Positions 3,063 to 58,498 of a DNA stretch of 64,000 bases are shown here, one piece after another; position 1 is the stretch's first letter; every line of letters begins with the position of its first letter. The notes under the pieces are model-generated. The model was not told the DNA's origin. It saw nothing but the letters and a program-made list of their open reading frames with translations, and did not search any database. Location of the stretch: assembly GCF_037042905.1 (NCBI RefSeq), contig NC_087251.1:3722001-3786000 (forward strand), read 5' to 3'. Position numbers and translations under genes: made by a program. Origin of the DNA: Lytechinus pictus (lineage: Eukaryota).

Positions 3063-4577
3063 AAGTATGTTTTTTAATTTATTGCATTTATTGGTGTCTC
3101 TATTTTATCAAACAATCATTGGAATTGTGCATACAATGAATCAAGAATCTAGTTTTTAAAATACTGACAAGCCAACCGCGTAGCCAGGATTTCATTTTGG
3201 AGGGGGCGGTAAATGCACGCAAAGCGTGCCAACACTTACAGAGCGTGCGTAGCGCATTCCCTAGGGGGTGGGTGCAGGGCGAAGCTTTCGGTGTTTCATA
3301 AATTAAAATGAAAAGGAGCCGTCTCTCTAGTCTCTAGTACCTACATATTAGCCCCAATTCAGTTGACTATATTGTGATTTTGAACCTTGTTTTCGAAAGT
3401 GACTGTGAATGCACAAAAAGGGATAAAATGGAGGAAAATAATATTAACACCGCGCGAGGCGCGGAAGCTAAAGCGTTTTGTCAATTTTTTTGCAAAGAAA
3501 AGGGTCCCGAGAAAAGGGTATTCTCTAAGTTATATTGAATACTTCCCTCGGAAAGATCAGATTTGATTACAAACAATTTAGCGACAGTGCATATCTTAAC
3601 TTGCAAAACAGAGGAGAAGAAGGATATATGCTGGGAGGAAGATATTCCTCCCCGCGCAGAGCAAAGAAACTCTGAAATTTCAAAGGGCGGACGTTTCGTC
3701 AAATGCAGATATCTCTAATACCCCCATCGGCTCTAATTCAATTGTTTTTCCTCTAAGATTATTGAACTTCATTACAAGGAAAATAGTGCGCAAAAATTTG
3801 AAACTTCTGTGATTTATTGAAATTATATAAAACAGGATGATGACTTTGACTTATCCTGATGCGCATCATTTTGAATGATAACGAAATTTAAGTGTCATTC
3901 AAAATTTCAAACTGAGGGCGCAAAACAGGACAGGAGATGAATGTGCAGGGAAATTACATGAAGTTTAGTAGAATTTGATAAAATATATTGTACTTTTTTT
4001 TATTTAATACGACATGAATTTTATACCTTCCTCTTTTTAAATTAGGAACCTGTTTGCCCCCAAATTATGGTTGTTTAGTAATGAGCTGAAAAGCGGGAGA
4101 AGTTGCCTATATGGAGGTGACGGCAGAAATTGATATAAAGATTTTACCCGCCCGGAGACGACCCGACCAGAAGTTGCGCTATCAATTATTAAAAAAAAAC
4201 AAAGATAACTTCATATACTTCGGCCTATCCTTACTCTAATTTCATGCCCTAAATTTATATATTTGAACTTTAACTGGCAAGAAACACATATAGCTGAGGT
4301 GGAAAAACAGGGTTAGAGAAAGGGTGAGGGAAACAAAGGAGAACTGCAATATTGTCATTTAACCGCGCGCAGCGAGGAAGCAAAATTCATACATGTAGAT
4401 ATAAATTTAGAGCGTGAGTGAAGGAGTTTCTTTTTTGAGAAAAAAAAAGAATAAAAAGAAAAACCCACAAAGCTACCTTTCTTCCCTTTCCTTCCTTTGC
4501 TTTTCCTTTTCTCCTCTCTTTCCCCTTTTTTTTTCTTTTTGGGGACGTTTTTTTTGGGGGGCGACCGCCCGGTTCCA

Positions 4578-5041
4578 TGACAATTGCTCCGCCGACATCT
4601 GCTCCGCCGACAATTGCTACGCAAAATACGACAACTGCTCCGCCGACAATTGCTCCGGACAGTTGCTCCGCCGACAGTTGCTCCGTCGACACTTGCTCCG
4701 CCGATATGTGCTCCGTCGACACTTGCTCCGCCGATATTTGCTCCGCCGATATTTGCTCCGCCGACATCTGCTCCGCCGACATCTGCTCCGCCGAAAATTG
4801 CTCCGCCGACAATTGCTCCGCCGATAATTGCTCCGCCGACATCTGCTCCGATTATACGACAATTGCTCCGCCGATATTTGCTCCGCCGAAAATTGCTCCG
4901 ATTATACGACAATTGCTCCGCGACAATTGCTCCGCCGATATTTGCTCCGCCGACATCTGCTCCGATTATACGACAATAGCTCCGTCGATAATTGCTCCGC
5001 CGACATCTGCTCCGCCGTAAATTGCTCCGATAATGCGACAA
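4578..5041 (+). repeat. 15-bp tandem repeat array (left TIR of foldback element)
   Basis: About 30 units of (A/T)TGCTCCGCCGA(C/T)A(A/T) with occasional GATTATAC variants. Confidence 0.95.
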
Positions 5042-5096
5042 TTAATTTACAAAGTAAACTTAAACTATGCTTGCATGATATATTACATGTCATACA

Positions 5097-5260
5097 CAGG
5101 GGCCGCGGGACGGTTTTCAAAGTGAGGGCTGAGTCAAAAGTGGGGGGGGGGGGGGCTGTCCATGCTAAAAATCACAATCATATGGTCATTCTTACGTTTT
5201 TTGGTACACGGCTTTGGAAAATTGGGGGGGGGCTAAAGCCCCCCGGCTCCACGGCCCCTG
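5097..5260. mobile_element. CAGGGGCC MITE with 5-bp TSD ATACA (hAT5-like)
   Basis: TIR CAGGGGCCG(C/T)GG; ATACA at 5092-5096 and 5261-5265. Confidence 0.75.
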
Positions 5261-7439
5261 ATACATGCATATAGAAAGAAATAGAAAAAAAGGGGTAAGC
5301 ACAAAGGAGGGAGAGATATTCTTAATGCTTATTCATGGTGGGGGGGGGGGGGAGCATTTGTGTAAGTTTTATTACGTGCCTGGCGATTAAAATGAAGAAA
5401 AAAAAAACGCGTTTTCATGTAATTATTATAACCATATAGCTCCATGTTATAACAGTAGAAACAAATTAGACATACCCCATTCTTAGCGTCAAAGTCGATC
5501 AGACTGGCGAAATATGCTCCGAAGTGGAGACATTTGCTCCAGGTGAAATTCAACGGTATACCCCACCTTATTTTGTCGAAAACCTGTACTGTAGTCACGC
5601 AAAATGTTTACTGTCGGCAAATTTTGTGCCACACAAACATGACCAAGACATTCAGTAAGTAAAAATTAATATTCAAGAAAATACCAACTTGTGAAAGGCT
5701 ACATGTCATGTCACCTTCTCGACACACCCCTCCACTCTGGTTTCCATATCCTCTCGTACACACAGTGCTCTCAGTCTGGTCTCCACATCCACATCATGTC
5801 ATACACACCGTAGGTTTTAGATTATGATAATATTGTATATAATAGTGAGTTGCTTTTTTGTTTTATGTTGATCATGATTGTTTTCTTCACTGATAGAAAA
5901 AGGATAATTAATTTTTTTTTTTAATCCAAAAATAAAATCCATATGTTCTGTTTTATATAGTTATTAGTCAAGGTTACTTTAGTTCGCATTAGTTCTCATT
6001 GTTTATACGTTCTAATTCCTATGCATTATTCCGATTGATATTGTACTTTAAATTTGACTATGTATTGTTACTTTGATTATGTTGTGCTTTGTGAACGGAA
6101 AATGAATAAATCTTAATCTAAATCTAAATATGGTCCGCCAATAGTTGAATTATATTCATTATGATGTTATAATGTAAGTAACAATTTGTTGTTGATGGGG
6201 GATATAATTTTACAAGTAGTTTCAAAAAATAAAAAAAATCAATCAAACAAGATTTTCTTCTATAAATGATATACCTTCATGTGTATATGGCAGCCTATGT
6301 ATTTTCCAAAAATGAACTATATGAGAAGAAAACGTGTGTTCATGTACTTATTATCATTATCATTGTACCACCATTATCATCATCAGCATCTTCATCATCA
6401 TTATCATTGTCATCGTCGTTTTGCTTATGCGGAAATCAAACAAAAATGATTGTGAAAAGGGTTATGGAGGGAAAGAGAGGGAGAGAGAGAGAGAAAGAGG
6501 GGGAGTGAGTGAGAGCTTGAGGAAAAAAGGAGGTGTATGACTTATTATTTCTGAATATCGCGATTTCTGTTTATTCATGGGATTGAAATAGAAGGATAAA
6601 CTTAACAAGTTCTTGTCATTATCATTTTTTTATTTGATTTACTGATCAGAACATGAGATAAATGAAATCATGAAGACTGTACGTTCTCGACAGTTTTATT
6701 AACGTTTTCCAACCAAAACTACACTTTAATGACTGCAAACACCTTCATTTTCACACACTCGCAACTATGGACACAGTATACATGTAATTGAGAGTAGTGT
6801 CATTTTCAAAACCTTTCTTAGCTGCAAGGAATACTGAATCTCATTTCCACAATGTGCATCTGAATGCACAATGCCTGTGTTTTTAACATGTACCCAAATT
6901 ACCAAATTTAAAGAACACATGTTAAGATCTAATGAATCAGCTAAATAATCCACATTCTATCATGATCAGCAGGCATAACAGCCTATATACTCTTCAATAC
7001 TTCAATTACAGTTTGTCGAAAGAAATAACACAAAGAAAAAGAAATATATAGAATTGTAACTCTGGTAAATATATAAAAAATATTCAATTAACGCATCGTG
7101 CTCTCATTTCTTTTACGAGATATCTCCCCCCCCCCCCCCGAGATATGCTTCATGTTTACAATTTTAAAAAAGGCGTATAAATGTCCCCTTTCCATGTCAA
7201 TAACAGCTCGTGCTTTGTGCTCGCATTATAAATTCAGTGAGATGCGTATTGGGTTTCATGAATTTGTAACTATATTATTGCTGGTATATATATTATTGTC
7301 TTTTAAAAATAACATTATTTGTTTAGACGTAATGAGAGAGATACATACATATATGCATTTATTATAATATATTTATATTGTCGCTATTGCACAGAATAGA
7401 ACAAAAATACAACCGAAGTCTAGTTTAATAGTAACTCAC

Positions 7440-7590: not shown

Positions 7591-8146
7591 ATGATCATAC
7601 TTTCGTTTGAAACAAATTGAAGGAAAAAAGTGCCAGGGTAGATAAGGCCGAAGACGTAAATAAAAATTATTGATAAAAATATTAATGATTATAATACTGA
7701 TAAATATACAATAAATCAAGCGGTCACCAATAAAAATACACAACGTGAAAGAACAAAACGAGAAAGAGCCCGCGCGAATGTATGGTGTATAATTTGCTGG
7801 AAAGCAGAAGAGATATTGTGTCCAACACCCCCCCCCCCAAATTCTCTCCCCGCTCAAGACCGGAGTGAAACCAATGATAATAATATAATATATTAAAACA
7901 AAAATCCAGATTCACAATTTCAATGGGGAGTGTGTCATTCCCCTTCTCCGTTACAATTTGTCAAGTGGCAGCGGCAGGGAGAACAATTTGTTTTGTTTTT
8001 TAAGCAGAAAGCTGCGATGATAGGGAAAGAAAAAAATAAATAAAACATTAACGAATAACAAGAACAAAACAACGACAAAACAATTTGTATCAGGATGAAT
8101 TTCTTATCATTTAACCTAGACCAACTTGGAGAAATAAGATGTTCAT

Positions 8147-8594
8147 GCAATTGTCGTATAATCGGAGCAGATGTCGGCGGAGCAAATATCGGCGGAGCAA
8201 TTGTCGCGGAGCAATTGTCGTATAATCGGAGCAATTTCGGAGCAAATATCGGCGGAGCAATTGTCGCGGAGCAATTGTCGTATAATCGGAGCAATTTTCG
8301 GCGGAGCAATTGTCGTATAATCGGAGCAGATGTCGGCGGAGCAATTATCGGCGGAGCAATTGTCGGCGGAGCAATTTTCGGCGGAGCAGATGTCGGCGGA
8401 GCACATGTCGGCGGAGCAAATATCGGCGGAGCAAATATCGGCGGAGCAAGTGTCGACGGAGCACATATCGGCGGAGCAAGTGTCGACGGAGCAACTGTCG
8501 GCGGAGCAATTGTCCGGAGCAATTGTCGGCGGAGCAATTGTCTTATTTTGCGTAGCAATTGTCGGCGGAGCAGATGTCGGCGGAGCAATTGTCG
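8147..8594 (-). repeat. 15-bp tandem repeat array (right TIR of foldback element)
   Basis: Reverse complement of the 4578-5041 array (GGAGCAATTGTCGGC units). Confidence 0.95.
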
Positions 8595-8969
8595 GGTCAC
8601 CGACCGCCCCCCCCCTGGCTACGCACCTGTGACAAGCTGAATTAAGGTTGTGAACTGTATTAGCGCCACCAACGACCTTCCTTTTATTTCCGTGGAAGAG
8701 ACATGCGTAGCCACTTTCCAGGCCGAGGTAAGCGATTTTGCTCTTTTTTGTGTGTCCTTTTTAAATAAAAAAATATGTTAAAAATTGAAAATTGAACGCT
8801 TTTCACCAGAAAAAGCCCTGGTGAGTAGCGGAATGGGTTTCGGCTAACATCATTCACGTTATGAAGCGATGTTAACGACAACTCTAAAATCCATTGCGTA
8901 AACATGTTGGTTGCGCGAGGTTAGTATAGCATAACCTCGCAATACGTGTGAGTGGGTCTAGGTATACAG

Positions 8970-13274: not shown

Positions 13275-13977
13275 CAGTGCGTTAAAAAAAAACGGGACAG
13301 ATTTGAAAAGTCTATAAAATTTTTGTTTCAAATTATGATCTCTATATTTTGGTGTCAATAGGCATGATAGGTGCTCTGGAGTCTTATCCTTCAAATGCCA
13401 TTAAAATAATTTAGTATCGTTCATGTTTGAGCGAACACGGAATGTTTTTGTCTGGGGTTAAAAAGGAGGCTTGCGCCAAAATGGCATAAAATGATAAATA
13501 TGATGGTCGGACTTCTTGCTAATCAGCAGACTTTCTCTCAACCTTTTCATTATCTTTGCCATATTTTTCAAATTATGCGGTCAAAATTCATTTTCAAATC
13601 TATTTATTTGCTCGAATAGTTCTGTTGTTGTTCCTTTTTAATATCTTGTCTTTTAGCTTTGAATATTCCTTCTTTAGGCAAGAACAATTTTTTTTTAAAC
13701 CAAAGTATGGGAGAGCGTGTTTTTTTTCAAATCCTTTCATTGTGTGCTACAAAGGTTATGGTGCCTTTGAACAGTGGCATACTAATGGGTGAGGGCTCGG
13801 GGTACTCCTCCCCCCCCCCCAAATAAAAAATCATGACCAAGAAAAAAAAGTGGAAAGGAAAATAACAGAAAACATAGAAAGTGAAACATAATATCATTTT
13901 CTGAATATTATGGCAAAATCACAAAATTTGATATTTTTAATAAAAAAAGTGGAAATTTTAATTTTTTAAATTTTTAA

Positions 13978-14743: not shown

Positions 14744-15437
14744 CATTTTACCATATCTGCCATATCTTGCTCCATTGACTCAATACACCATTGCCATTGA
14801 AAAACATGAATCCTTTCCTGTTTGTCCTGTCAAGCACATAATTAAACTTGGTGAAGGATTCAATAACTTCTTGAAAATAGGATTCATGTCTTTTATAGGT
14901 ACCATAACATAATTTGTTTCACATAATAAAACGATTTGAATAATTACAAATTCTCCCAATTGATAATGCAAATCTTCTTACTTGGGTTGACAAAAAGTCT
15001 TCTTTTCTTACTTATGAAGGAAAATTCAAAGGCAAAAGAAGTTTAAATGAAAAACAATATAATTCAGGTAAATGAATAAATTTGTGAATGAAATTTGACA
15101 GCATAATTCGAAAATTATGGCAAAGATAATGAAAAGATTAAGAGGAATTCTGTTGATGAGCCGAAAGTCTAACTCTCTCAAAAATTGTTTTTGAAATTCA
15201 AATTTCGAAGAGTAGAATATCGTTTGGGGCTTAGTTTTTCCGTATATATCGGATTAGGATCGTACTTATTCCACGGATGTCATTTATATGCCATTTTTTA
15301 TGCGGATCGATAGGATTTAGTTGGATTTAAATTGTCGCGGTGAACATCTTTCGCGAGGTGCAACGAGCGCAGTGGACCACCGAACGCAACGTAGAGTTTC
15401 AGCGGGGAGCTAGCCCGATACCTACTCGACGTTCGCG

Positions 15438-17508
15438 ATGGCGTCTGTCGTCAATCCAGCCGCCCGCAACGGGGAATTGACACTACAGGAGGCCATGAAG
15501 CGGCTTTCGCCGAACGCACTCGCAGATGAAGTTTCACCGCCGATCGATTCCACATTAGTTCAAGGAGCGAAAAGGAAAATTCTTCCGAAACGCAAGTCAT
15601 CGGAATCTGAAATCAGCGGTTCGCAGAGATCAAACAAGGGAAACACCAGTATTAAATCATCATCCAATAAAAACAAACAAGGGAAAGCATCAAGAGATAG
15701 GAAATCATCGACTCAAGCAGAAGAGAAAGAATTCCAATGTGAGTACTGTGCCCGGGGGGGCCACTTACATTGACGAGTGGATACCATGCGCGACCAAAAA
15801 AACACGTAAAAAGGATGTCTTTTTCACGATAGGGCACGTTACGTACGTAACGTGATAAGGGTGTCAAAAACACAAAAATAATGAAAAAAGGGTATCTATT
15901 TCGCTAGGAAAATTACGTGTTTAGGGTCGAATTCGCGGGGATGATAAAACAAAATTAAAATGTTTTATAAAGGATGTCCTTTTTGCCCCAACACTTCGTG
16001 TTTAGAGTCCGATTTGCGCGAGGTGTAGAAGGTGGGGTCGTACTAAACCAAATAAGGTAAAGCCGACGACCGAAGGACCCGTAACAATAAAACATTCCTG
16101 TACCTGTTTAGGGGTTCATTTCAGGGAACATTTGCCAAGAGTATCGTTTTGTTACCAATACTTGTTAAGGGTAGGGTTTCACACGCCAATACTTGTTAAG
16201 GGGCGCATTTTCAGAATATGGAAATTACGTGTTTAGGGTGCTTTTCGAGACCCCATGGTCGCGCATGGTATCCACTCGTGAATGGAAGTGGCCCCCCCGG
16301 GGTACTGTGATAAAACTGGCATTGAAATTATGATTGAATGTGAATGCTGCAAGCGGTGGTCATGTTTGTTGTGTCAAGGCATGTCCATGGAAGTGTATGC
16401 TGTACTGAGTGACGAAAATAATCATGCTCATTGGTACTGTTTTTACTGTGAAGAGAAGGCTATACAAGCTATCAAATCAGTTGAATTGAACGAGCAGAAA
16501 ACAGCAAACACTTATATCAATTCTGGCTTTACTGCCAACGGAGAACAAGGCAATAGCCGAAGTGCAGATATTCCCTTCAATCAGTTGGATCAATTTACTC
16601 ATCAAATATGTGAAATTATGCAAGAAATGAAAGGAATTAAGTCGATGCTAGAGTCTTCAGAGATAAATGACAATAGAAATAAATCATACGCACATGTAAC
16701 TAAACAACAAGAAAGAGTGGAGAGTAGGCCTAGAAGTAAAAGCAGTAGGGGCATTGAATCTGACATTAGCCAAAGCCCGAACTACAATTCAGATTCACAG
16801 GCTAGTCATGTGCAACTGCAGCAACAATCTGCACTCATTAACATAGCAACTGTTGATGAAATAGTTGATAGAGAAAGAAGAAAGCTAAACTTAGTTTTAT
16901 TCAATGTACCAGAGTCGACAGGTGATAGTTTTCAAGAGCGACAGTGTGAGGATGCAAAAGAGGCTGAAACTATCTTCTCAACAGGATGTCACGTGGAGGG
17001 AGTTAGGATTATGAAAGTCATACGACTGGGAGGGAGGATCCAAAATCAGAACGCCAAGCCCAGGGTTCTGTTGGTACAACTTGAAGATGCTACACACAAA
17101 AGTGAAATCTTGAAGTCAGCAAAAAACTTGAGAAAAATAGAGAAATGGATGAATGTATTCATTGCTCCAGACATGACTAAACAACAGCGATTAGAGCGTA
17201 AAGCTCTGAGGGAAGAGCTCAAGAGGAGACGCGAGGAGGGTGAAGAAAACTTGACAATTCGCAGAGGAAGATTAGTCACCTACAATATTGATGTGAAACT
17301 CAAGCAGAAGCGTACAGAGAATGTGGCACATTCCTCCTCCCCGCAGACGAAAGACAAGCAGGTGAAAGAGAATGTTCAATCCAGCTTCCAACAATCAGAA
17401 GGCATACAAGAAGTGCGACCCAGCACTCAACCTAAAGATGGACAAGTTTTAACAGATGAGACAAGGTTAGAAGGAGCAATAGGAGGAGTTGACCTCGGTG
17501 AGTGTTGA
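15438..17508 (+). pseudogene. CR1 ORF1 (PHD-like zinc finger, nucleic-acid-binding protein), interrupted by a 551-bp MITE
   Basis: Joining 15438-15750 to 16310-17508 restores a 503-aa frame: CEYC..MIECECCKRWSCLLC..WYCFYC, then ERRKLNLVLFNVPES..RLG..PRVLLV..VFIAPDMT motifs typical of CR1/L2 ORF1. Confidence 0.88.
15751..16301. mobile_element. CCCGGGGGGGCCACTT-TIR MITE, 8-bp TSD GTACTGTG (superfamily unassigned)
   Basis: Perfect 16-bp TIR plus further subterminal IR (ACGAGTGGATACCATGCGCGACCA); GTACTGTG at 15743-15750 and 16302-16309. Confidence 0.9.
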
Positions 17509-20406
17509 CTACAGGAGAGTAAATGTTCAGTTGATGACAATTCAGTGGCATTTGAAACTGGAAATGATTTGAAAGTTCTATATACAAATGCAGACTCTTT
17601 ATCTAACAAAATGATTGAGTTGGAGATCATTGTGCATAACTTGAATATTGATATTATTTTGGTGACTGAAGCAAAACCTAAATCTTCTGTAACAGAATCA
17701 ACTCTGACTTCATTTAACATACAAGGATTTAATATATTTGGAAACCTTGAAAAGGGCAAGTGCAATTCTCGTGGAGTTTTGATATACACAAGGACTACAC
17801 TCAAGGTGATTGAAGTGGAAATGTTTAACGACTTTATTGAATCATCATGGTGTATGATAACTCTACAAGGGAATTCGAAGCTTCTTGTAGGATGTATATA
17901 TCGAAGCCCATCAAGTGCTATGGAAAATAATATATTGTTGAATAATTATATCAGACAACTGTCTGAAAACAAAGACACAGCTATATTTATCGTTGGTGAC
18001 TTTAACTTTCCCGAAATAGACTGGAATTCATGGTACGTCAGAGGGTTAGGTGACAACCAGGCTAAACATTTTGTAGATGCTCTTCAAGACTCGTATTTTT
18101 TTCAACATGTATCTGAATATACAAGATTTAGACAAGGGCAAAATCCCAGTGTTTTAGACCTCGTTATTACAAACACAGAAGACATGATTAAAAACTTGGA
18201 TGTGCTGCCTCCATTAGGAAAAAGTGACCATTGTTGTATTGTTGTTGACTTGAAAGTTTCTGGAGAAAAAAGAGCCAGAACAAAGTCATTAAAGTTGAAA
18301 CTAGACAAAGGAGATTATGAGAAACTCAATTATCTTCTCAGTGATATTAAGTGGAGTGAACTTTTAGTAGACAGGACATGCTGTGATGCCTGGAAACTCT
18401 TCAAAGATATATTCCTTACTTTTGTTCAGGAATGCGTGCCTCCTTGCCAGATAAGAGACTCGAAGCAACGTAGGAGCCCATATATATCGAAAGAAGCATT
18501 GAGGTTATCCAGCAAGAAGAAAAAAGCATGGAAGATGTATGTAAACACTGAAAGTATTATTGATCATGCTAAATACAAAAGGATACGTAATCATTTGAGA
18601 CAAGTTACCAGACAGGACTGTATTGAGTATGAAGGATCACTAGCTAAGGAGGTAGCCTCAAACCCGAAGAAATTTTGGAAGTATGCCAACAGGAAAATAA
18701 AATCAAGACCTGGAATAAGTGATCTAGTAAACTCAGAGGGAAAAGTCATAAGTTCAGACATAGAAAAGGCAAAACTTCTTAATGACTTCTTTTCAAGCGT
18801 TTTTGTCAATGAGAATTTGTATTTTATGCCAGATATAAATTGGCAATACTCTGGTCCACCACTATCTGATGTAATTATTACTAAAGAAAAGGTAGAAAAG
18901 AAAGTTCTTAAACTGAATGGAAGCAAATCTCCAGGTCCAGACGAAATGCATCCAAGACTGTTGAAGGAAACTGCACGTTCCATTTCTGTTCCACTACAAA
19001 TCATTTTTGAGAAGTCATTTGATGAAGGCATGCTTCCTGGTGATTGGAAAGTCGGAAACATAACTCCGCTACACAAAAAGGGAAGCAAGAAGAACATTGA
19101 AAACTATAGACCAATAAGTTTAACATCAGTGGTTGGAAAAGTGATGGAGGGTTTAATTCGTGATATAGTGATGCAACATCTGATGGATCATTGTTTGCTT
19201 TCAAACTGTCAACATGGATTTACTCCAAATCGGTCCTGTATGACACAACTTTTATGTGCAATGGAAGAAATGACAGGCAAACTTGATGCTGGAATTCCAA
19301 TTGATGTCATTTATTTAGACTTTTGTAAAGCATTTGACTCTGTTCCTCATGAAAGGCTTCTCAAGAAATTAATGTCATATGGTATAGTTGGAAAATTACA
19401 TGCTTGGATAAGAGCCTTTGTAACAGGAAGGGAACAGAGAGTGACTATCAACGGTGAAAGTTCTGATTGGAGTCAAGTAAGCAGCGGAATTCCGCAAGGG
19501 AGCGTGTTAGGACCCATTCTCTTTGTCATCTTTATAAATGATTTACCTAATATTTTGGACAATTCTGTGTATATATTTGCCGACGATACCAAAATCATCG
19601 GTGATGTTAGCTCTGATGTTAAACAAAAGACTCTTCAAGCAGATCTTACTCATGCTGTCGAATGGAGTGAAACCTGGCAACTTAAGTTTAATACTAAGAA
19701 ATGCAAGGTTCTACATATTGGAAAGAACAATTCAAGAAGTGTGTATACTATGAATGGAGATGAATTAGAACCATGTAAGCAGGAAAAAGATCTCGGTGTT
19801 ATTATGGATGAAGAGCTCAATTTTCACCAACATGTCTCAGCAGCTGTTTTGAAAGCTAACCAAATACTTGGAATAATACACAGGACTTTTTCTCAAATAA
19901 CCCCTGAAATATTACCAATTTTGTTTGTATCTCTGGTTCGACCTCATCTGGAATATGGGAACATTTTATGGCATGTGAGATTCAAAATGGATGCAGACAA
20001 AGTAGAGAAGGTGCAAAGGAGAGCTACTCGCATGATTCCTGGTCTCCAGAGCTTACCGTATGAGCAACGTCTACAGAGACTAAACCTTCACTCACTGTTT
20101 TACAGAAGACGAAGAGGAGATATGATTACTGTGTACAAACTGTTAAATGGAAAGTTTGGGATCTCGAGTGATATATTTTTCACACCAGCAATCCATTCAG
20201 CAACTAGAGGTCACAAGTTCAAGCTCTTCACAGGACGATCCCGGTTGGAACTTAGGAGCAAATTTTTTAGTCAAAGAGTAATTTCTGACTGGAACAAACT
20301 GCCTACAGAAGTAGTGGAAGCAAAATCAGTGGAAATGTTTAAACATCGTTTGGATAAATTTTGGTGGGGGGAAAGATTTAAAACCTCCATTTCTCAACGC
20401 ACGTAA
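17509..20406 (+). CDS. CR1 ORF2: AP-endonuclease plus reverse transcriptase (intact frame)
   Basis: APE motifs YTNADSL, VTE, YRSP, VGDFN, LDLV, SDH; RT motifs KSPGPD, NYRPISL, QHGF, YLDFCKAFDSV, GIPQGSVLGP, FADD; CR1 C-terminus TRGH..FFSQRV..WNKLP. The frame is open from the ORF1 stop. Confidence 0.95.
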   Translation, partial: LQESKCSVDDNSVAFETGNDLKVLYTNADSLSNKMIELEIIVHNLNIDIILVTEAKPKSSVTESTLTSFNIQGFNIFGNLEKGKCNSRGVLIYTRTTLKVIEVEMFNDFIESSWCMITLQGNSKLLVGCIYRSPSSAMENNILLNNYIRQLSENKDTAIFIVGDFNFPEIDWNSWYVRGLGDNQAKHFVDALQDSYFFQHVSEYTRFRQGQNPSVLDLVITNTEDMIKNLDVLPPLGKSDHCCIVVDLKVSGEKRARTKSLKLKLDKGDYEKLNYLLSDIKWSELLVDRTCCDAWKLFKDIFLTFVQECVPPCQIRDSKQRRSPYISKEALRLSSKKKKAWKMYVNTESIIDHAKYKRIRNHLRQVTRQDCIEYEGSLAKEVASNPKKFWKYANRKIKSRPGISDLVNSEGKVISSDIEKAKLLNDFFSSVFVNENLYFMPDINWQYSGPPLSDVIITKEKVEKKVLKLNGSKSPGPDEMHPRLLKETARSISVPLQIIFEKSFDEGMLPGDWKVGNITPLHKKGSKKNIENYRPISLTSVVGKVMEGLIRDIVMQHLMDHCLLSNCQHGFTPNRSCMTQLLCAMEEMTGKLDAGIPIDVIYLDFCKAFDSVPHERLLKKLMSYGIVGKLHAWIRAFVTGREQRVTINGESSDWSQVSSGIPQGSVLGPILFVIFINDLPNILDNSVYIFADDTKIIGDVSSDVKQKTLQADLTHAVEWSETWQLKFNTKKCKVLHIGKNNSRSVYTMNGDELEPCKQEKDLGVIMDEELNFHQHVSAAVLKANQILGIIHRTFSQITPEILPILFVSLVRPHLEYGNILWHVRFKMDADKVEKVQRRATRMIPGLQSLPYEQRLQRLNLHSLFYRRRRGDMITVYKLLNGKFGISSDIFFTPAIHSATRGHKFKLFTGRSRLELRSKFFSQRVISDWNKLPTEVVEAKSVEMFKHRLDKFWWGERFKTSISQRT

Positions 20407-20741
20407 AGTCTCACAAGTTTAAACTGTCTAGATAATCGTCAATTACCGGAAGTTAAGATCGGAAACCTACAGGAGAAGTCCTTCATTTCCGTACCTGATG
20501 TGATGTGATGTGATGTGATAATCAAATTTTTCATTTCTGCAATTTTGGCGCAAGCCTCTTTTTGAACCCCCGACAAAAACGTCCCGTGTTCGCTCAAGCA
20601 TGAACACAATTTATTTTTTTAAATGGCATTTCAAAGATAAGATCTCAGAGCATCTATTAACATCAAAATATAGATATAATGATTTCAAACAAATTTTTAT
20701 AAACTTTTCAAAACTGTCCCGTTTTTTTTATACGCACTGTA

Positions 20742-39700: not shown

Positions 39701-42700
39701 TCAGTTTTCAGACCAAAAAGACACCAACAGAATGGTGGGAAAATCTTACATGACTCAACCCCATTTCAGGCTGTGTTTGTTTGTATATTTATCATCATTT
39801 TATATTGATAAATTGCAATGTATAAGGAATAATATCTGTAGATGACAATGGACCCTTTTTTCTGATTTTGAAGGAAATACTCCCTGGGTTGTATTTAGGA
39901 CCATATGCTGCAGCTCAAAGAAGCAAGGTAAGAATATATGCTTTAGGTCTTACTTAATGCTGCACTCTATTTTTTAATCATATAAAGTCCATACTTAACC
40001 CCAAAAAAATAATTACTCTCTGTTCATGAGAAGATTAAAGATATTTATTGGTATAAAACCATCTTAATAATTCATTAGATAAATTCTATGGTACTCAAGA
40101 GAGTAGACAAAATTGATTAAATAATCATTTACATCACTTGAAGACTACTTTAACATTTTGGGATTAGAGGTTCTTAAACTGTTCATGATTAAATGGTGCT
40201 TTGCATAATATATTCACTGTTAATGCACTTGAATTAAGAAAATATTTGAATTGGCTTACTTTGAATTGCAACATTTTTTTTTCAATAATTGATTTTTTAA
40301 TAATTGATCTCTTCTTATGACAGATTTCTTATTTTCCTTCCCCTAGTTACCTGTTCTGTTAGAGCATGGTATTACCCATGTCCTTTGTATAAGACAGGCA
40401 CCGGAGGCAACCATCATTAAACCAAACTTTCCTGACAGATTTCAGTAAGTAAACACACAACTTTAAGGTTTGATTCTTTGTATCATGGAGTGATTTGTAT
40501 TATAATAGAAATAATATGAGACATTACAGCTATGTTGAAAACTATTATGTAAACTGTCTATTTGATAATCATATTGTGTGTTATAAAACTTTATAGGAAG
40601 GTGAAAATACTGACTTTGTGTGATTGCAGTTTACAATTTGCTTACATCGTTCTGCTTGTTATACAAAGTTTTTCTTATATTTACAGGTACTTAGTCCTCG
40701 ATGTAGCAGACAATGCATTGGAAAATATCATCAGACATATACCTACAGTAAGATATATCCTCACTCTACAGTGCATATAAAAAAAAAACGGGACAGTTTT
40801 GAAAAGTCTATCAAAATTTTGTTTCAAATTATGATGTCTATATTTTGTTGTTTATAGATGATCTGAAATCTTATCTTTCAAATGCCATTGAAAAATATCA
40901 GTTTCGTTCATGCTTGAGCGAACATGGAACACTTTTTTGAGGGGTTAAAAAAAAGGCTTGCACCAAACAGTAGAAAATGAGAAAATACTGATCATCAGAC
41001 TTCTTGCTAATCAGCAAACTTCCTTTCAATCTTTTCATTATCTCTGCCATAATTTTCGAATTATGGTGTCAAAATCCATTTACAAATCTATTCATTTACT
41101 TAAATTATTTTGTTGGTGTTTTTTAAATATGATATCTTTTAGCATTGAATTTTTTCATGAGTAAAAGCAAAAAATTGTCAACCCAAGTAAGGGGATAATG
41201 GGATAGCTTGTAATTTTATCATATCCTTTTATTGTGGGCTGCAAAGGTTTTGGTACCTTTGAAAGACATGAATCCTTCTGTTAGAATTAATATTGTCCTG
41301 TCAAGCACACAATTTGACTTGTTCAAGGAATCAATGTCCCCTTGGCAATAGGATTCATGTCTTTCAAATGCACCATAACCTTTGTTGCACATAATAAAAG
41401 GATATGAATAAATTACAAGCTCTTCAATTAATAATGGATATCTCCTTGCTTAGGTTAACAATTTTTTTTCTTTAGCTAATATGAAAGAATATTCAATGCT
41501 AAAAGATAACATATTTAAATGAAACAAGGTGGTTTGCGAATCATAAGTCTCGCCTGATTTCGCGATAATTAAAATATGCAATATAATCTTTTGACCCCTA
41601 GACGACCTTTGACCCCATCATCCTCATAAATACACATGTAGTATTACCCAAGGATCATTATGTACCAAGTATGAACATGATTGATGCAGAAATAAAGAAA
41701 TCAGAGCAAGTTGAACAAAAAAAACTTCAAAAAAGGATGGACATGACCACATATCATTTGACGTTTTGACCCCTAGACGACCTTCGACCTCATGTCCTCA
41801 TGGACAGATATGTAAAATTATCCAATGATAATATTTACCAACTATGAACATAATTGATGTAGAAATAAAGAATTGAGAGCAAATTGAATAAAAACTAGCA
41901 AGAAGTCTGATGATCAATATTTTCTGGCATTTGGCGCAAGCCTTTTTTTTTAACCCCTCACAAAAACGTCTTGTGTTCGCTCAAGCATGAACGAAACTAT
42001 TTTAAAAAAAAGCATTAGAAAGATAAGACATCAGAGCATCTATTAACATCAAAATATAGACATCATAATTTGAAACTAAATTTTGATAGACTTTTCTAAA
42101 CTGTCCCGTATTTTTTTTATGCACTGTATATACACTATAATACAAAGTCAATTTGTAATCAAATATTACACCTTTGACTTGTAACAATAATAATATAATG
42201 TAGGTTTATACTCAAAGTAAAATGTGTCATTTTCTGTAAGGAGTTGTACAATATATATAGATACTTGCATAATATCTTGAGTCATTTTATTTCTTCAGAT
42301 GATCATGCAGACTGCCTAATACCTCTTTCATAGGGAGCTCTTCCCTGTTGAACTAAAGTGGGCAAGGTAGTGAAACAGTGGTAAAAGGTTCAGTTTGAAA
42401 GGAATATCTTCCTCACTAACTTCTTCAGTTCAAAAGGTGGAAAAGGAATAGGTGGTAATGTTACCCATCTAAATTTATCAGTATCAATGAGATGCTACAA
42501 GTTTAGCAGCCTAGTGATGTCATATCCACTCTGGTTGACTTCAGAAAATGAAAAAATGCCCACCCCGCCCTTCTATATTTCCAGCAGAGCTCCATTGAAC
42601 ACCCTGCATTCAGATCATGAGTGAAGAGAAAGCAGTATGAAATGATACACTATTTTCTTCACTGGTGAAATGAAGAATACAAGCTTGTAAAGTTGAGTGG

Positions 42701-56000: not shown

Positions 56001-57328
56001 AGTACACATGTATATAAAAAAAATTAAGTAATTATGATTTCATGTATTAACATAATAAGGAAACTGGGAACATGACATCATATCAGCCTACCTAGCTATT
56101 TCATATTCATAATGACACGCTTATAACTGTTTTTTTCAAGCAATATTGCTATAGTTTAAAATACAATAACTTCGCTATTTAGTTGAAATTTGATGAAATT
56201 TTCAGCTTTTTGCTATATATTTTTTTAGCACGGAAAACAACTTTAAGATAAAACAAACGTGTGAAACGTAATAAATATCCAAAGAAAATGTTGATTCATA
56301 TTAGTTGAGTTTGATTACCTCATGAAGCGTTTTGACAAGTCACTATTTAAAGATAGATTGTTTGAAACAATGAAAAAGGTCATCTTAATTAATTCGGACT
56401 TGCCAAATTCTCCACAATCATTTCAAATTTCATTTCGATATATATATTAAGTCATTCTTTCAATTTTTCTTTCATTCTCTCCTCCATCTTTCTCTTATTC
56501 CATCCATCAGTGCTTTTCTTATTATGAAGCAAATTATAACGAATTCGTTGTAAACTTCCCACACCCTGGCGTCTGACTATAGCTACTATGCAATGCCGCC
56601 GTATCTATGACGAGTTTATCAGATAGTTACGTAATACATGATAAAAAACTGTTAATCAACATTTGGTGCAAATATTGTAAACTTGCAATTTGCCACATCA
56701 CTACAACTATTTGGTCCTTGAAACTAGTGTGCAAATAATTGAATACATGTACTGACATAACTTTGTTGCATTGAGAAAGACGTGGACCTCTCCGTGAATG
56801 AAGGGATTCACCATGCATGGGGCATTAAAAAGAACTTGATGTTGAAATCCGGACATAGCGGTGGAGGCTAATTTCTCATTTGCTTTTTAGGGCTCAAAAA
56901 GCCCCGCTTGAAACATTTTTATAATAAAACTTGTTTGCTTCAGTACCTCTATCATTTCAAACGGATATCTCGTAAACACGCAGGACTTTGGAGATTGATG
57001 ACCTTCTTATAGAGTTGAAAAGAATATTTTACTGATCTCGGGAACTTCTTTTAGTGACAGAAACATTTGTGAAATATAACATTGAAGTCACTTTGATTTT
57101 TGGAGTCACCAAGAGCTCACACAAGTTTATATAAATGACTTTTTATATTTCACTTAAAAAAACGACAGAAAGTGGAAGTGCTGGAACAAAACTTGACTCC
57201 ATTTTCGAGTATCAATATGATGGGCATAATCGATGTCATTGGAAATACCAGAGCAGATGTGATAAGTGAATTATCAAGCTCAGTATCGGTGATTCCTTAC
57301 TGACAATATTGGGTTTGTATCAGTCGCG

Positions 57329-58498
57329 ATGTATCAGAAAGAGATACGAAAACGAATCTCAGATCACTCTCAAAGAGTCATCCAGAATAATGAATGCGAG
57401 AGACGTCTACTAGATGGGAAGATGGTCTTAATGAACAAGGAACATCTCCGACAGTTACGTAACCATGACATCGAAATGCTACAACTTAAACATGAAATTA
57501 AGATGTTCAATAATATCAAAAGGGAACTCGCCAACGAAACACACGACGGAATCAAATTGAGAAATCGACCAAGCACTGTCGAATTGATACGTCATGTTCC
57601 AAATAAGATGACGAGATCGCGGACTTTCGCGCCAGAAGTTGTGGCAAAAGAAGATGAAACTAAAAGAAAATTATTATTCCCGCAGCTTGATGAAAAAATG
57701 CGCGATAATTCTAAACAAACCGAAACCTTGAAATACGAGCAGACTGGCGAACAACAAGGTGATTATCAAGAAGGCAATCGTCGAAAGGGTTTCATTAAAG
57801 AAGATAAATTCGCACTTAAAAGTGATCGACGAAACAGTGTCTTCGACAGATCGGCGGGAAATAATAATTCAGGACAACATGTTCTTCCAGAATTACCAAA
57901 ACATCTTCAAAGATATGATCATCGGCGACCAACAGATGACTCAAGGATGAACGGAACTTTCAGAACTCACGGAACCTCAGGTACGCAGCTGTCGATGGTG
58001 CATAGTATTGCTTGGTTAAGCTTCCGAGAAAGACAACATGTCATGAATCCTTCATATACACCAGACAACAATGACGAAGTAGATGAAGACGATGATGGTG
58101 ATGATGATGGTGACGTAGATGACGAAAATGAGAAACAAAATTACTTAAATCAATCTTCAAACAGTGCATCCAAAAAGGTTGGGGAGAAATCCAATTTGAT
58201 ATCTGCATCCGATTCGGCACTCTACCCATCACGCTTCAATAAACTTATGATAGACGAAGGTGACGATGATAACGATACACCGGCATACCGTAGTCAATAT
58301 CTTTCTTACTATAATCTTAATCGCACGAATTTCACCGAAGTGAAAAAGACTGAGAATGACTTGATGAACATAATGACTCGCTCTCAGATTAAGTTTGGTC
58401 AAGGACGTCATATTGCAGCTCGATTAGAGCGTCGACGTCTCCTTCGTAGCTGGAATGCTCGATCTCTTCCAACATCACAAAACATCGACGAAGACTGA
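57329..58498 (+). CDS. Uncharacterised 389-aa protein with N-terminal coiled coil and acidic tract
   Basis: 1170-bp open frame in unique, non-repeat DNA; helical heptad region NNECERRLLDGKMVLMNKEHLRQLRNHDIEMLQLKHEI; no TE motifs recognised. Confidence 0.75.
   Translation: MYQKEIRKRISDHSQRVIQNNECERRLLDGKMVLMNKEHLRQLRNHDIEMLQLKHEIKMFNNIKRELANETHDGIKLRNRPSTVELIRHVPNKMTRSRTFAPEVVAKEDETKRKLLFPQLDEKMRDNSKQTETLKYEQTGEQQGDYQEGNRRKGFIKEDKFALKSDRRNSVFDRSAGNNNSGQHVLPELPKHLQRYDHRRPTDDSRMNGTFRTHGTSGTQLSMVHSIAWLSFRERQHVMNPSYTPDNNDEVDEDDDGDDDGDVDDENEKQNYLNQSSNSASKKVGEKSNLISASDSALYPSRFNKLMIDEGDDDNDTPAYRSQYLSYYNLNRTNFTEVKKTENDLMNIMTRSQIKFGQGRHIAARLERRRLLRSWNARSLPTSQNIDED

Follow-up and report, generated by a model that had tools for sequence, protein, structure and literature searches.

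An in-frame TGA-CTA between the two open reading frames of a CR1-type LINE from Lytechinus pictus, a candidate for programmed readthrough

The stretch analysed here (the window) comprises 64,000 nucleotides of Lytechinus pictus, contig NC_087251.1, and contains an apparently full-length CR1-type long interspersed nuclear element (LINE) whose two open reading frames (ORFs) share a frame and are separated by a single TGA followed by CTA. The most probable reading, at roughly three chances in four, is programmed readthrough of this TGA-CTA to give an ORF1–ORF2 fusion carrying the endonuclease and reverse transcriptase (RT). This had been proposed in an original prediction made from the letters of the window; the conservation of the stop and the enrichment of its context at distant in-frame junctions support it; the production of the fusion and its rate are inferred. 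Most ribosomes would halt at the UGA and release the ORF1 protein (ORF1p); a few percent would insert an amino acid there and proceed into the APE endonuclease and the RT, with a predicted disordered tether of ∼80 residues joining ORF1p to APE. Readthrough would in this way set a high ratio of ORF1p to ORF2 protein (ORF2p), like gag-pol readthrough. The signal seems to be mainly the linear UGA-CUA context, that is, a known readthrough signal in a type of element for which restart is the accepted model.

The junction between ORF1 and ORF2

ORF1 ends in GAG TGT TGA at 17500–17508 and the same frame continues with CTA CAG GAG AGT, remaining open for 965 codons until the ORF2 stop (Table 1), just as had been predicted. 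The first in-frame ATG of ORF2 (17611) is codon 35 past the stop and was correctly placed downstream of the LKVLYTNADSL motif (17569–17601); the conserved endonuclease Asn is codon 27. This ATG corresponds to about residue 24 of L1 in the profile alignment, and a start there would therefore lose the part of the endonuclease that holds the equivalent of L1 Asn14; the N14A mutation lowers L1 retrotransposition to 1% (passages of PMC1965478). Three further ATGs precede the motif on the 3′ side of the stop, at 17523, 17534 and 17564; all are out of frame, and they open 3, 12 and 2 codons, respectively. The GTG at 17545 that had been named as an alternative start is present in frame, but a second near-cognate codon ahead of the Asn, TTG 17569, had been overlooked. 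Similarly, the linker of 12 codons holds for the distance from the stop to GTG 17545, while the distance to the APE motif is 20 codons, and the predicted fusion of ∼1469 residues (503 + 1 + 965) holds for an element without the 551 bp insertion that interrupts ORF1 in the present copy.

UGA-CUA and UAG-G are published type II and type III readthrough contexts, as described in passages of PMC3542737. Two features of the type II class, UGA with CUA or CGG and an in-frame downstream ORF with conserved context, are seen at the junction. The arrangement of the L1/SART1 type, in which an ORF2 AUG lies close to the end of ORF1 and precedes the endonuclease, is not found here. Inspection of the junction sequence gave no 2A-like motif (of the kind in passages of PMC13405545). 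The chance of a shared frame and no stop over 20 codons is 0.061, and multiplying by 0.010 for CTA gives ∼6 × 10−4, a figure computed post hoc.

Table 1. Features of the element, in positions of the window
Feature	Position	Strand	Basis
CR1-type LINE, apparently full length, 5′ end approximate	15171–20519	+	Flanks and tail
ORF1, 503 codons without the insertion	15438–17508	+	ATG start, G at both −3 and +4
PHD finger within ORF1, interrupted by the insertion	15738–16460	+	Cys pattern; profile matches PHD structures
Insertion, 551 bp	15751–16301	.	∼46 bp terminal inverted repeats; 8 bp target duplication (15743–15750, 16302–16309)
RRM and C-terminal domain, predicted L1 ORF1p-like fold	16888–17325	+	AlphaFold model, Foldseek
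Predicted disordered ORF1 tail, 60 residues	17326–17505	+	AlphaFold pLDDT ∼50
TGA CTA, single in-frame stop, type II readthrough context	17506–17511	+	Sequence; unchanged in X10, X11, X2, X5, X1
20-codon linker without ATG	17509–17568	+	Sequence, both species
Predicted hairpin, weak support	17548–17591	+	z = −1.88
APE endonuclease; conserved Asn codon 17587–17589	17569–18240	+	Pfam PF03372, PF14529
Reverse transcriptase domain	19087–19731	+	Pfam RVT_1, E = 2.7 × 10−32
ORF2 stop TAA	20404–20406	+	Sequence
3′ tail (TGATG)4.8	20496–20519	+	Sequence

Other copies and a second species

Other copies were assessed from eight of 23 listed sequencing runs, which represent organism A and organism B, the latter a second species that is ∼96% identical. 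For organism A, the X5 contig is identical over 16975–17539, the X2 contig bridges the stop unchanged and the X1 contig, which has foreign sequence at its start and ends 24 nt past the stop, has seven differences, none of them at the stop. For organism B, X10 covers 17390–17690 as a single piece that differs at 13 of its 301 nt, and X11 also crosses the stop; the stop is unchanged in both, neither has an indel, and neither lists a change between 17462 and 17541. In each organism B contig two differences have no listed position; 17394 and 17402, where X1 also differs, are likely places. The X14 contig does not reach the stop, and two raw RNA runs had depths of 0.32 and 0 at the junction. The original prediction had named a sense codon, a shifted frame or an upstream ATG in other copies as grounds for abandoning it; no sense codon, indel or upstream ATG occurs at the junction in any covering contig. 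As far as these contig sequences go, the TGA is a trait of the family in two species and not private to the present copy.

Organism A contigs in X1, X2 and X5 also include internally deleted forms that skip 1122 and 2810 nt (17619–18742 and 16498–19309). The ends of the skipped stretches are not GT-AG, and the deleted forms are possibly non-autonomous derivatives.

Survey of distant LINE junctions

An APE alignment search that covered 17 of 64 parts of the metagenome set gave 461 loci, of which the best 80 were used, and to these 34 loci in genome bins and further loci from the same bins were added; LINE contigs in metagenomes and bins were taken as host-animal DNA. Bacterial and archaeal bins (G001, G002, G006, G013 and others) are rich in LINE contigs, with up to 49 matches in G002, and these are likely to be host DNA. 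The first motif was present in 225 rows, 18 of which had no upstream stop; the remaining 207 formed 142 families at 70% identity, and 140 after removal of two that resemble bacterial exonuclease III. A junction was called in frame if an ORF1 profile match ended at the stop, or if 150 codons were open upstream, or 75 to the end of the contig; the doubtful members L170 and L022 were retained in the counts. On this definition 28 families are in frame (the window included), 75 are out of frame and 37 are unclear.

CTA follows the stop in nine of the 27 in-frame families other than that of the window and in one of the 75 out-of-frame families (p = 1.7 × 10−5). TGA-C and TAG-G, both of them known readthrough contexts, account for most of the remaining in-frame stops: without the window, TGA-C is found in 11/27 in-frame versus 0/75 out-of-frame families and TAG-G in 11/27 versus 9/75, while TAA shows the opposite distribution (2/27 versus 46/75). 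CTA was a prior prediction; the TAG-G class was added after the data had been seen and comes from two bins only. Within the metagenome-only set with an ORF1 profile match, CTA follows four of five in-frame stops and one of 49 out-of-frame stops, and it follows neither the terminal stops of ORF2 (0/42) nor the stops of the unclear families (0/37). Two loci fetched later, the sole new ones with an ORF1 profile match, both have an in-frame TGA CTA CAT. CTA or CTC codes for the endonuclease's own conserved Leu in three families, and leaving out the two of these that enter the counts gives a CTA count of 8/25. The window junction has no detectable DNA similarity to any other in-frame junction, and in APE the element is 28–43% identical to the CTA families where measurable.

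ATG, CTG, GTG, TTG and ACG are all absent ahead of the motif in eight of the 28 in-frame junctions, and in L112 and L156 no codon in this interval is within one mismatch of ATG. ORF2p must therefore start at or before the first codons past the stop in these families, which readthrough fits and which a restart right at the stop may fit as well. Searches for relatives gave none in a viral collection and no long ORF1-containing proteins among 5418 candidates (a weak search); samples of 301 and 176 genomes contained four and three with matches.

A quick tree of 100 rows, from which L170, L111 and L129 were left out, has the in-frame junctions scattered, with 13 switches of the frame state, and its starred branches require at least four changes for the CTA/TGA-C group. 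Across eight independent pairs the wider context, including TAG-G, accompanies the in-frame state in 6.7 instances and in none runs the other way (median p = 0.016).

One family of seven members (L209, L208, L210, L211, L212, L213 and L217) has an invariant TAG followed by a variable codon. Its linkers are 89–178 codons long and all in frame, four Cys and one Asn past the stop are preserved via synonymous codons, and the position of the first ATG ranges from codon 22 to codon 196. Within codons 3–6 after the TAG, a GGC and a GCC codon are invariant (7/7) and form a predicted 4 bp hairpin that begins 7 nt past the stop; it shows no covariation in the family and is a candidate type III stimulator. 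Related loci carry GGC or TGTTTT equally far from the stop.

Evidence weighing against readthrough

A number of points count against readthrough at the window stop. Once kinship is corrected for, CTA/TGA-C alone gives p = 0.125, and it is only the wider, post hoc definition with TAG-G that reaches the median p of 0.016 quoted above. The run of 80 unchanged nt that includes the stop is not significant (p = 0.086), the linker change at 17542 in organism B is non-synonymous and no intact single-ORF ORF1–ORF2 fusion was found among the fetched loci. Folding of the 150 nt after the stop, which had been proposed as a check, gave nothing significant: long helices are predicted 3′ of the stop, where the type II class has an extended stem-loop that begins at a distance of ∼8 nt, but the region folds no better than its shuffles (z = 0.62 and −0.07). 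One organism B change breaks the predicted pair 17536–17635; the predicted pair 17559–17580 is altered on both sides, which is a hint only, and four further changes fall at unpaired sites. The in-frame class as a whole has no 3′ structure by shuffling, with mean z values of 0.01 for CTA and −0.15 for TAG-G against 0.34 for out-of-frame junctions. Finally, GTG 17545 and TTG 17569 are both unchanged in organism B and could be starts; passages of PMC1965478 report that human L1 accepts any sense codon at the start of ORF2, and for this reason the missing ATG does not force readthrough.

A 3′ structure as a general stimulator at in-frame junctions is supported neither by the shuffling results nor by long-range pairing, for which z falls below −2 in 2/15 junctions of the CTA class, 0/12 of the TAG-G class and 8/75 out of frame.

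Alternative explanations

The main rival, which we regard as improbable, is termination followed by restart at a non-AUG codon, of the kind proposed for mammalian L1: GTG 17545, TTG 17569 or the first codon past the stop. Both of the near-cognate codons precede the Asn, the tolerance of L1 for any sense codon applies here as well, post-termination ribosomes resume at non-cognate codons in vitro (passages of PMC5972666) and slow termination might also promote restart. Restart has no need of a shared frame, yet the leaky contexts go with the in-frame state, and the eight in-frame junctions without a good near-cognate codon offer it little to work with. In both species the base at −3 of GTG 17545 is a pyrimidine, and the UGGGA motif is absent from 17400–17508.

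Splicing or an internal transcription start might instead remove or bypass the stop and provide a start, which we consider very unlikely. The stop does lie between a donor-like G/GTGAGT (17500/17501) and an acceptor-like CAG/G (17514/17515), and TAG-G is likewise acceptor-like. Paired, these sites would define an intron of 14 nt (17501–17514), which is out of frame and too short for animals; the upstream pyrimidine fraction is just 0.5, and no joint is listed at either site in the contigs, which show presence and not absence and whose RNA origin is a guess.

A third alternative, that the element is of a one-ORF kind in which a dead lineage has acquired a nonsense mutation, or that chance produced the arrangement, is largely refuted. 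The present copy is disabled by its insertion, deleted and decayed copies exist, and ORF1 and APE occur in one chain in three predicted proteins; of these, however, P0101 seems from its junction to be a frameshifted copy, while the remaining two appear to be annotated gene models. The stop is common to two species, four of the six differences listed for organism B from 17559 onwards are synonymous, and the TGA-CTA type of context is enriched across distant families. Least probable of all is another recoding of the stop, by A-to-I editing to Trp, by selenocysteine or by an altered genetic code: the UGA is preceded by a Cys codon and in-frame stops are seldom TAA, a codon that only two edits would convert, but an Rfam scan of 15300–20700 gave two chance matches and no selenocysteine insertion element, relatives have TAG and TAA before the same CTA, no A>G is listed at 17508, and ORF2 has 17 TGG and zero TGA in 965 codons.

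Other junction classes and a possible wider pattern

A broader reading goes beyond the window element, and we put it forward tentatively, at a little under an even chance: many invertebrate LINEs of several clades may make their RT as a gag-pol-like fusion and may have changed repeatedly from one route to another, namely readthrough of UGA-CUA, readthrough of UAG-G, and frameshifting by +1 or −1; the fusion would either tether an ORF1p subunit to the enzyme or be cut near GA(V/I)GG. If this were true, L1-like restart would be one option among several and not the rule.

The window has GAIGG at 17473–17487, near the end of ORF1. GA(V/I)GG or TVIGG occurs in P0121–P0124, P0129 and P0148, which include all four of the best ORF1 matches and make up 6/150 matches overall; at the junctions it is found in 5/18 in-frame versus 2/67 out-of-frame loci (among the loci with it are L081, L115, L126 and L141). 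It is possibly a binding or cleavage site. Where ORF2 is in the +1 frame (n = 16), five loci (L006, L035, L086, L122 and L138) have TTT in frame with C or T as the next base, no more than three codons from the stop, compared with 2/59 and 2/28 in the other junction classes; these are possible +1 frameshift sites in the last codons of ORF1. Where ORF2 is in the −1 frame (53 loci, for example L007, L010 and L078), slippery heptamers are found in the right phase in 25/53 and in the other phases in three and four, with 29 in the 2439 overlap codons versus 17 in 5327 codons upstream, an excess that is confounded by conserved Lys-Asn and Thr-Pro-Leu codons; these loci show no 3′ structure and many have an ATG of their own.

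Anatomy of the element and its surroundings

The element is a CR1-type LINE, the clade name being taken from its features and not from a reference RT tree. A PHD finger together with an RRM in ORF1, and a 3′ end of short tandem repeats instead of poly(A), are features of the CR1 group and both are seen here, as is the order expected of the group in ORF2, with the APE endonuclease ahead of the RT. The PHD finger is present in 13 of 40 aligned relatives. The ten top Foldseek matches of the ORF1 model are all human L1 ORF1p (best E = 5 × 10−6). The endonuclease profile matches L1 EN, from residue 23, and ExoIII, in which the conserved Asn aligns with residue 7; the APE sequence alone gave no sequence match in the PDB, whereas the profile search did. 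The Pfam search gave no protease domain in the LINE, and, as expected of the CR1 group, no RNase H domain in ORF2 was among its four matches at E up to 0.1, although a weak domain could escape.

The present copy is disabled and cannot make the full product because ORF1 holds the insertion, which we take from the length of the target duplication to be a hAT-like miniature inverted-repeat transposable element. It interrupts ORF1 within the PHD finger, such that ATG 15438 opens just 111 codons, and its right end brings an in-frame ATG (16282) that gives a shortened ORF1 of 408 codons. No second copy of the insertion occurs within the 64 kb window. The LINE is itself inserted in another dispersed repeat, both flanks matching one repeat at 40911–41164 and 13424–13672.

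Two of the four best ORF1 matches are named from Lytechinus pictus. The close ORF1 relative P0129 and the best ORF2 relative P0001 are both from ENA contigs of 4647 bases, which may be a single contig; the P0001 protein begins at a Met just past the first APE motif, like ATG 17611 in the window. Elsewhere in the window, 57293–58498 on the + strand is an open frame of 401 codons, perhaps a large host exon, and 4355–5274 and 7935–8760 are two related short-repeat arrays that are open in several frames.

Comparison with known systems

For the translation of ORF2 in LINEs, reviews give restart, in L1 and SART1, as the model. We found no description of readthrough in animal CR1 or L2 elements in the literature within reach of our search, subscription journals, Repbase reports and bioRxiv supplements lying beyond it. 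A conserved leaky stop in a widespread group of animal LINEs offers a sharp and cheap test case. If the readthrough reading is true, LINEs set the ORF1p:ORF2p ratio in the retroviral way, ORF2p is joined to its RNA chaperone from the outset, and annotating ORF2 from the first ATG removes a catalytic residue.

The alphavirus replicase has the identical six letters, UGA-CUA, with a polymerase behind the stop, but it is viral and has an extended stem-loop ∼8 nt after the stop (passages of PMC3542737), for which the LINE here has no support. Gammaretroviral gag-pol, with its UAG-G, and Tj1 of S. japonicus likewise place a structural protein first and the RT behind an in-frame stop (passages of PMC3542737, PMC5009743 and PMC5911963), and the TAG-G class of LINE junctions resembles the former; these are, however, long terminal repeat elements in which a protease cuts the fusion, whereas the Pfam search found no such domain in the LINE. 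Mammalian L1 and Bombyx SART1 are bicistronic LINEs with an L1-like ORF1p fold and an ORF2 that depends on the translation of ORF1 (passages of PMC5972666, PMC2881922 and PMC1965478), but in these restart takes place on an ORF2 AUG that follows a 63 nt spacer, or at an overlapping stop-start, while the present element has no ATG before the APE motif. The Dictyostelium LINEs TRE5-A and TRE3-A are said, in passages of PMC5911963, to require recoding for ORF2, by −1 frameshifting and not by readthrough. A precedent is the non-LTR Group 3 of Paramecium tetraurelia, for which readthrough of an in-frame stop was suggested from consensus sequences (PMC5405496): these too are APE–RT LINEs with ORF1 and ORF2 in frame and one stop between them. 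They belong to a separate ciliate clade, with TGA TTC at the junction of RT46341 in place of the UGA-CUA of the animal CR1-type element, and the available passages of that paper hold no context analysis or test, whereas the case for the animal element is built on a comparison across families.

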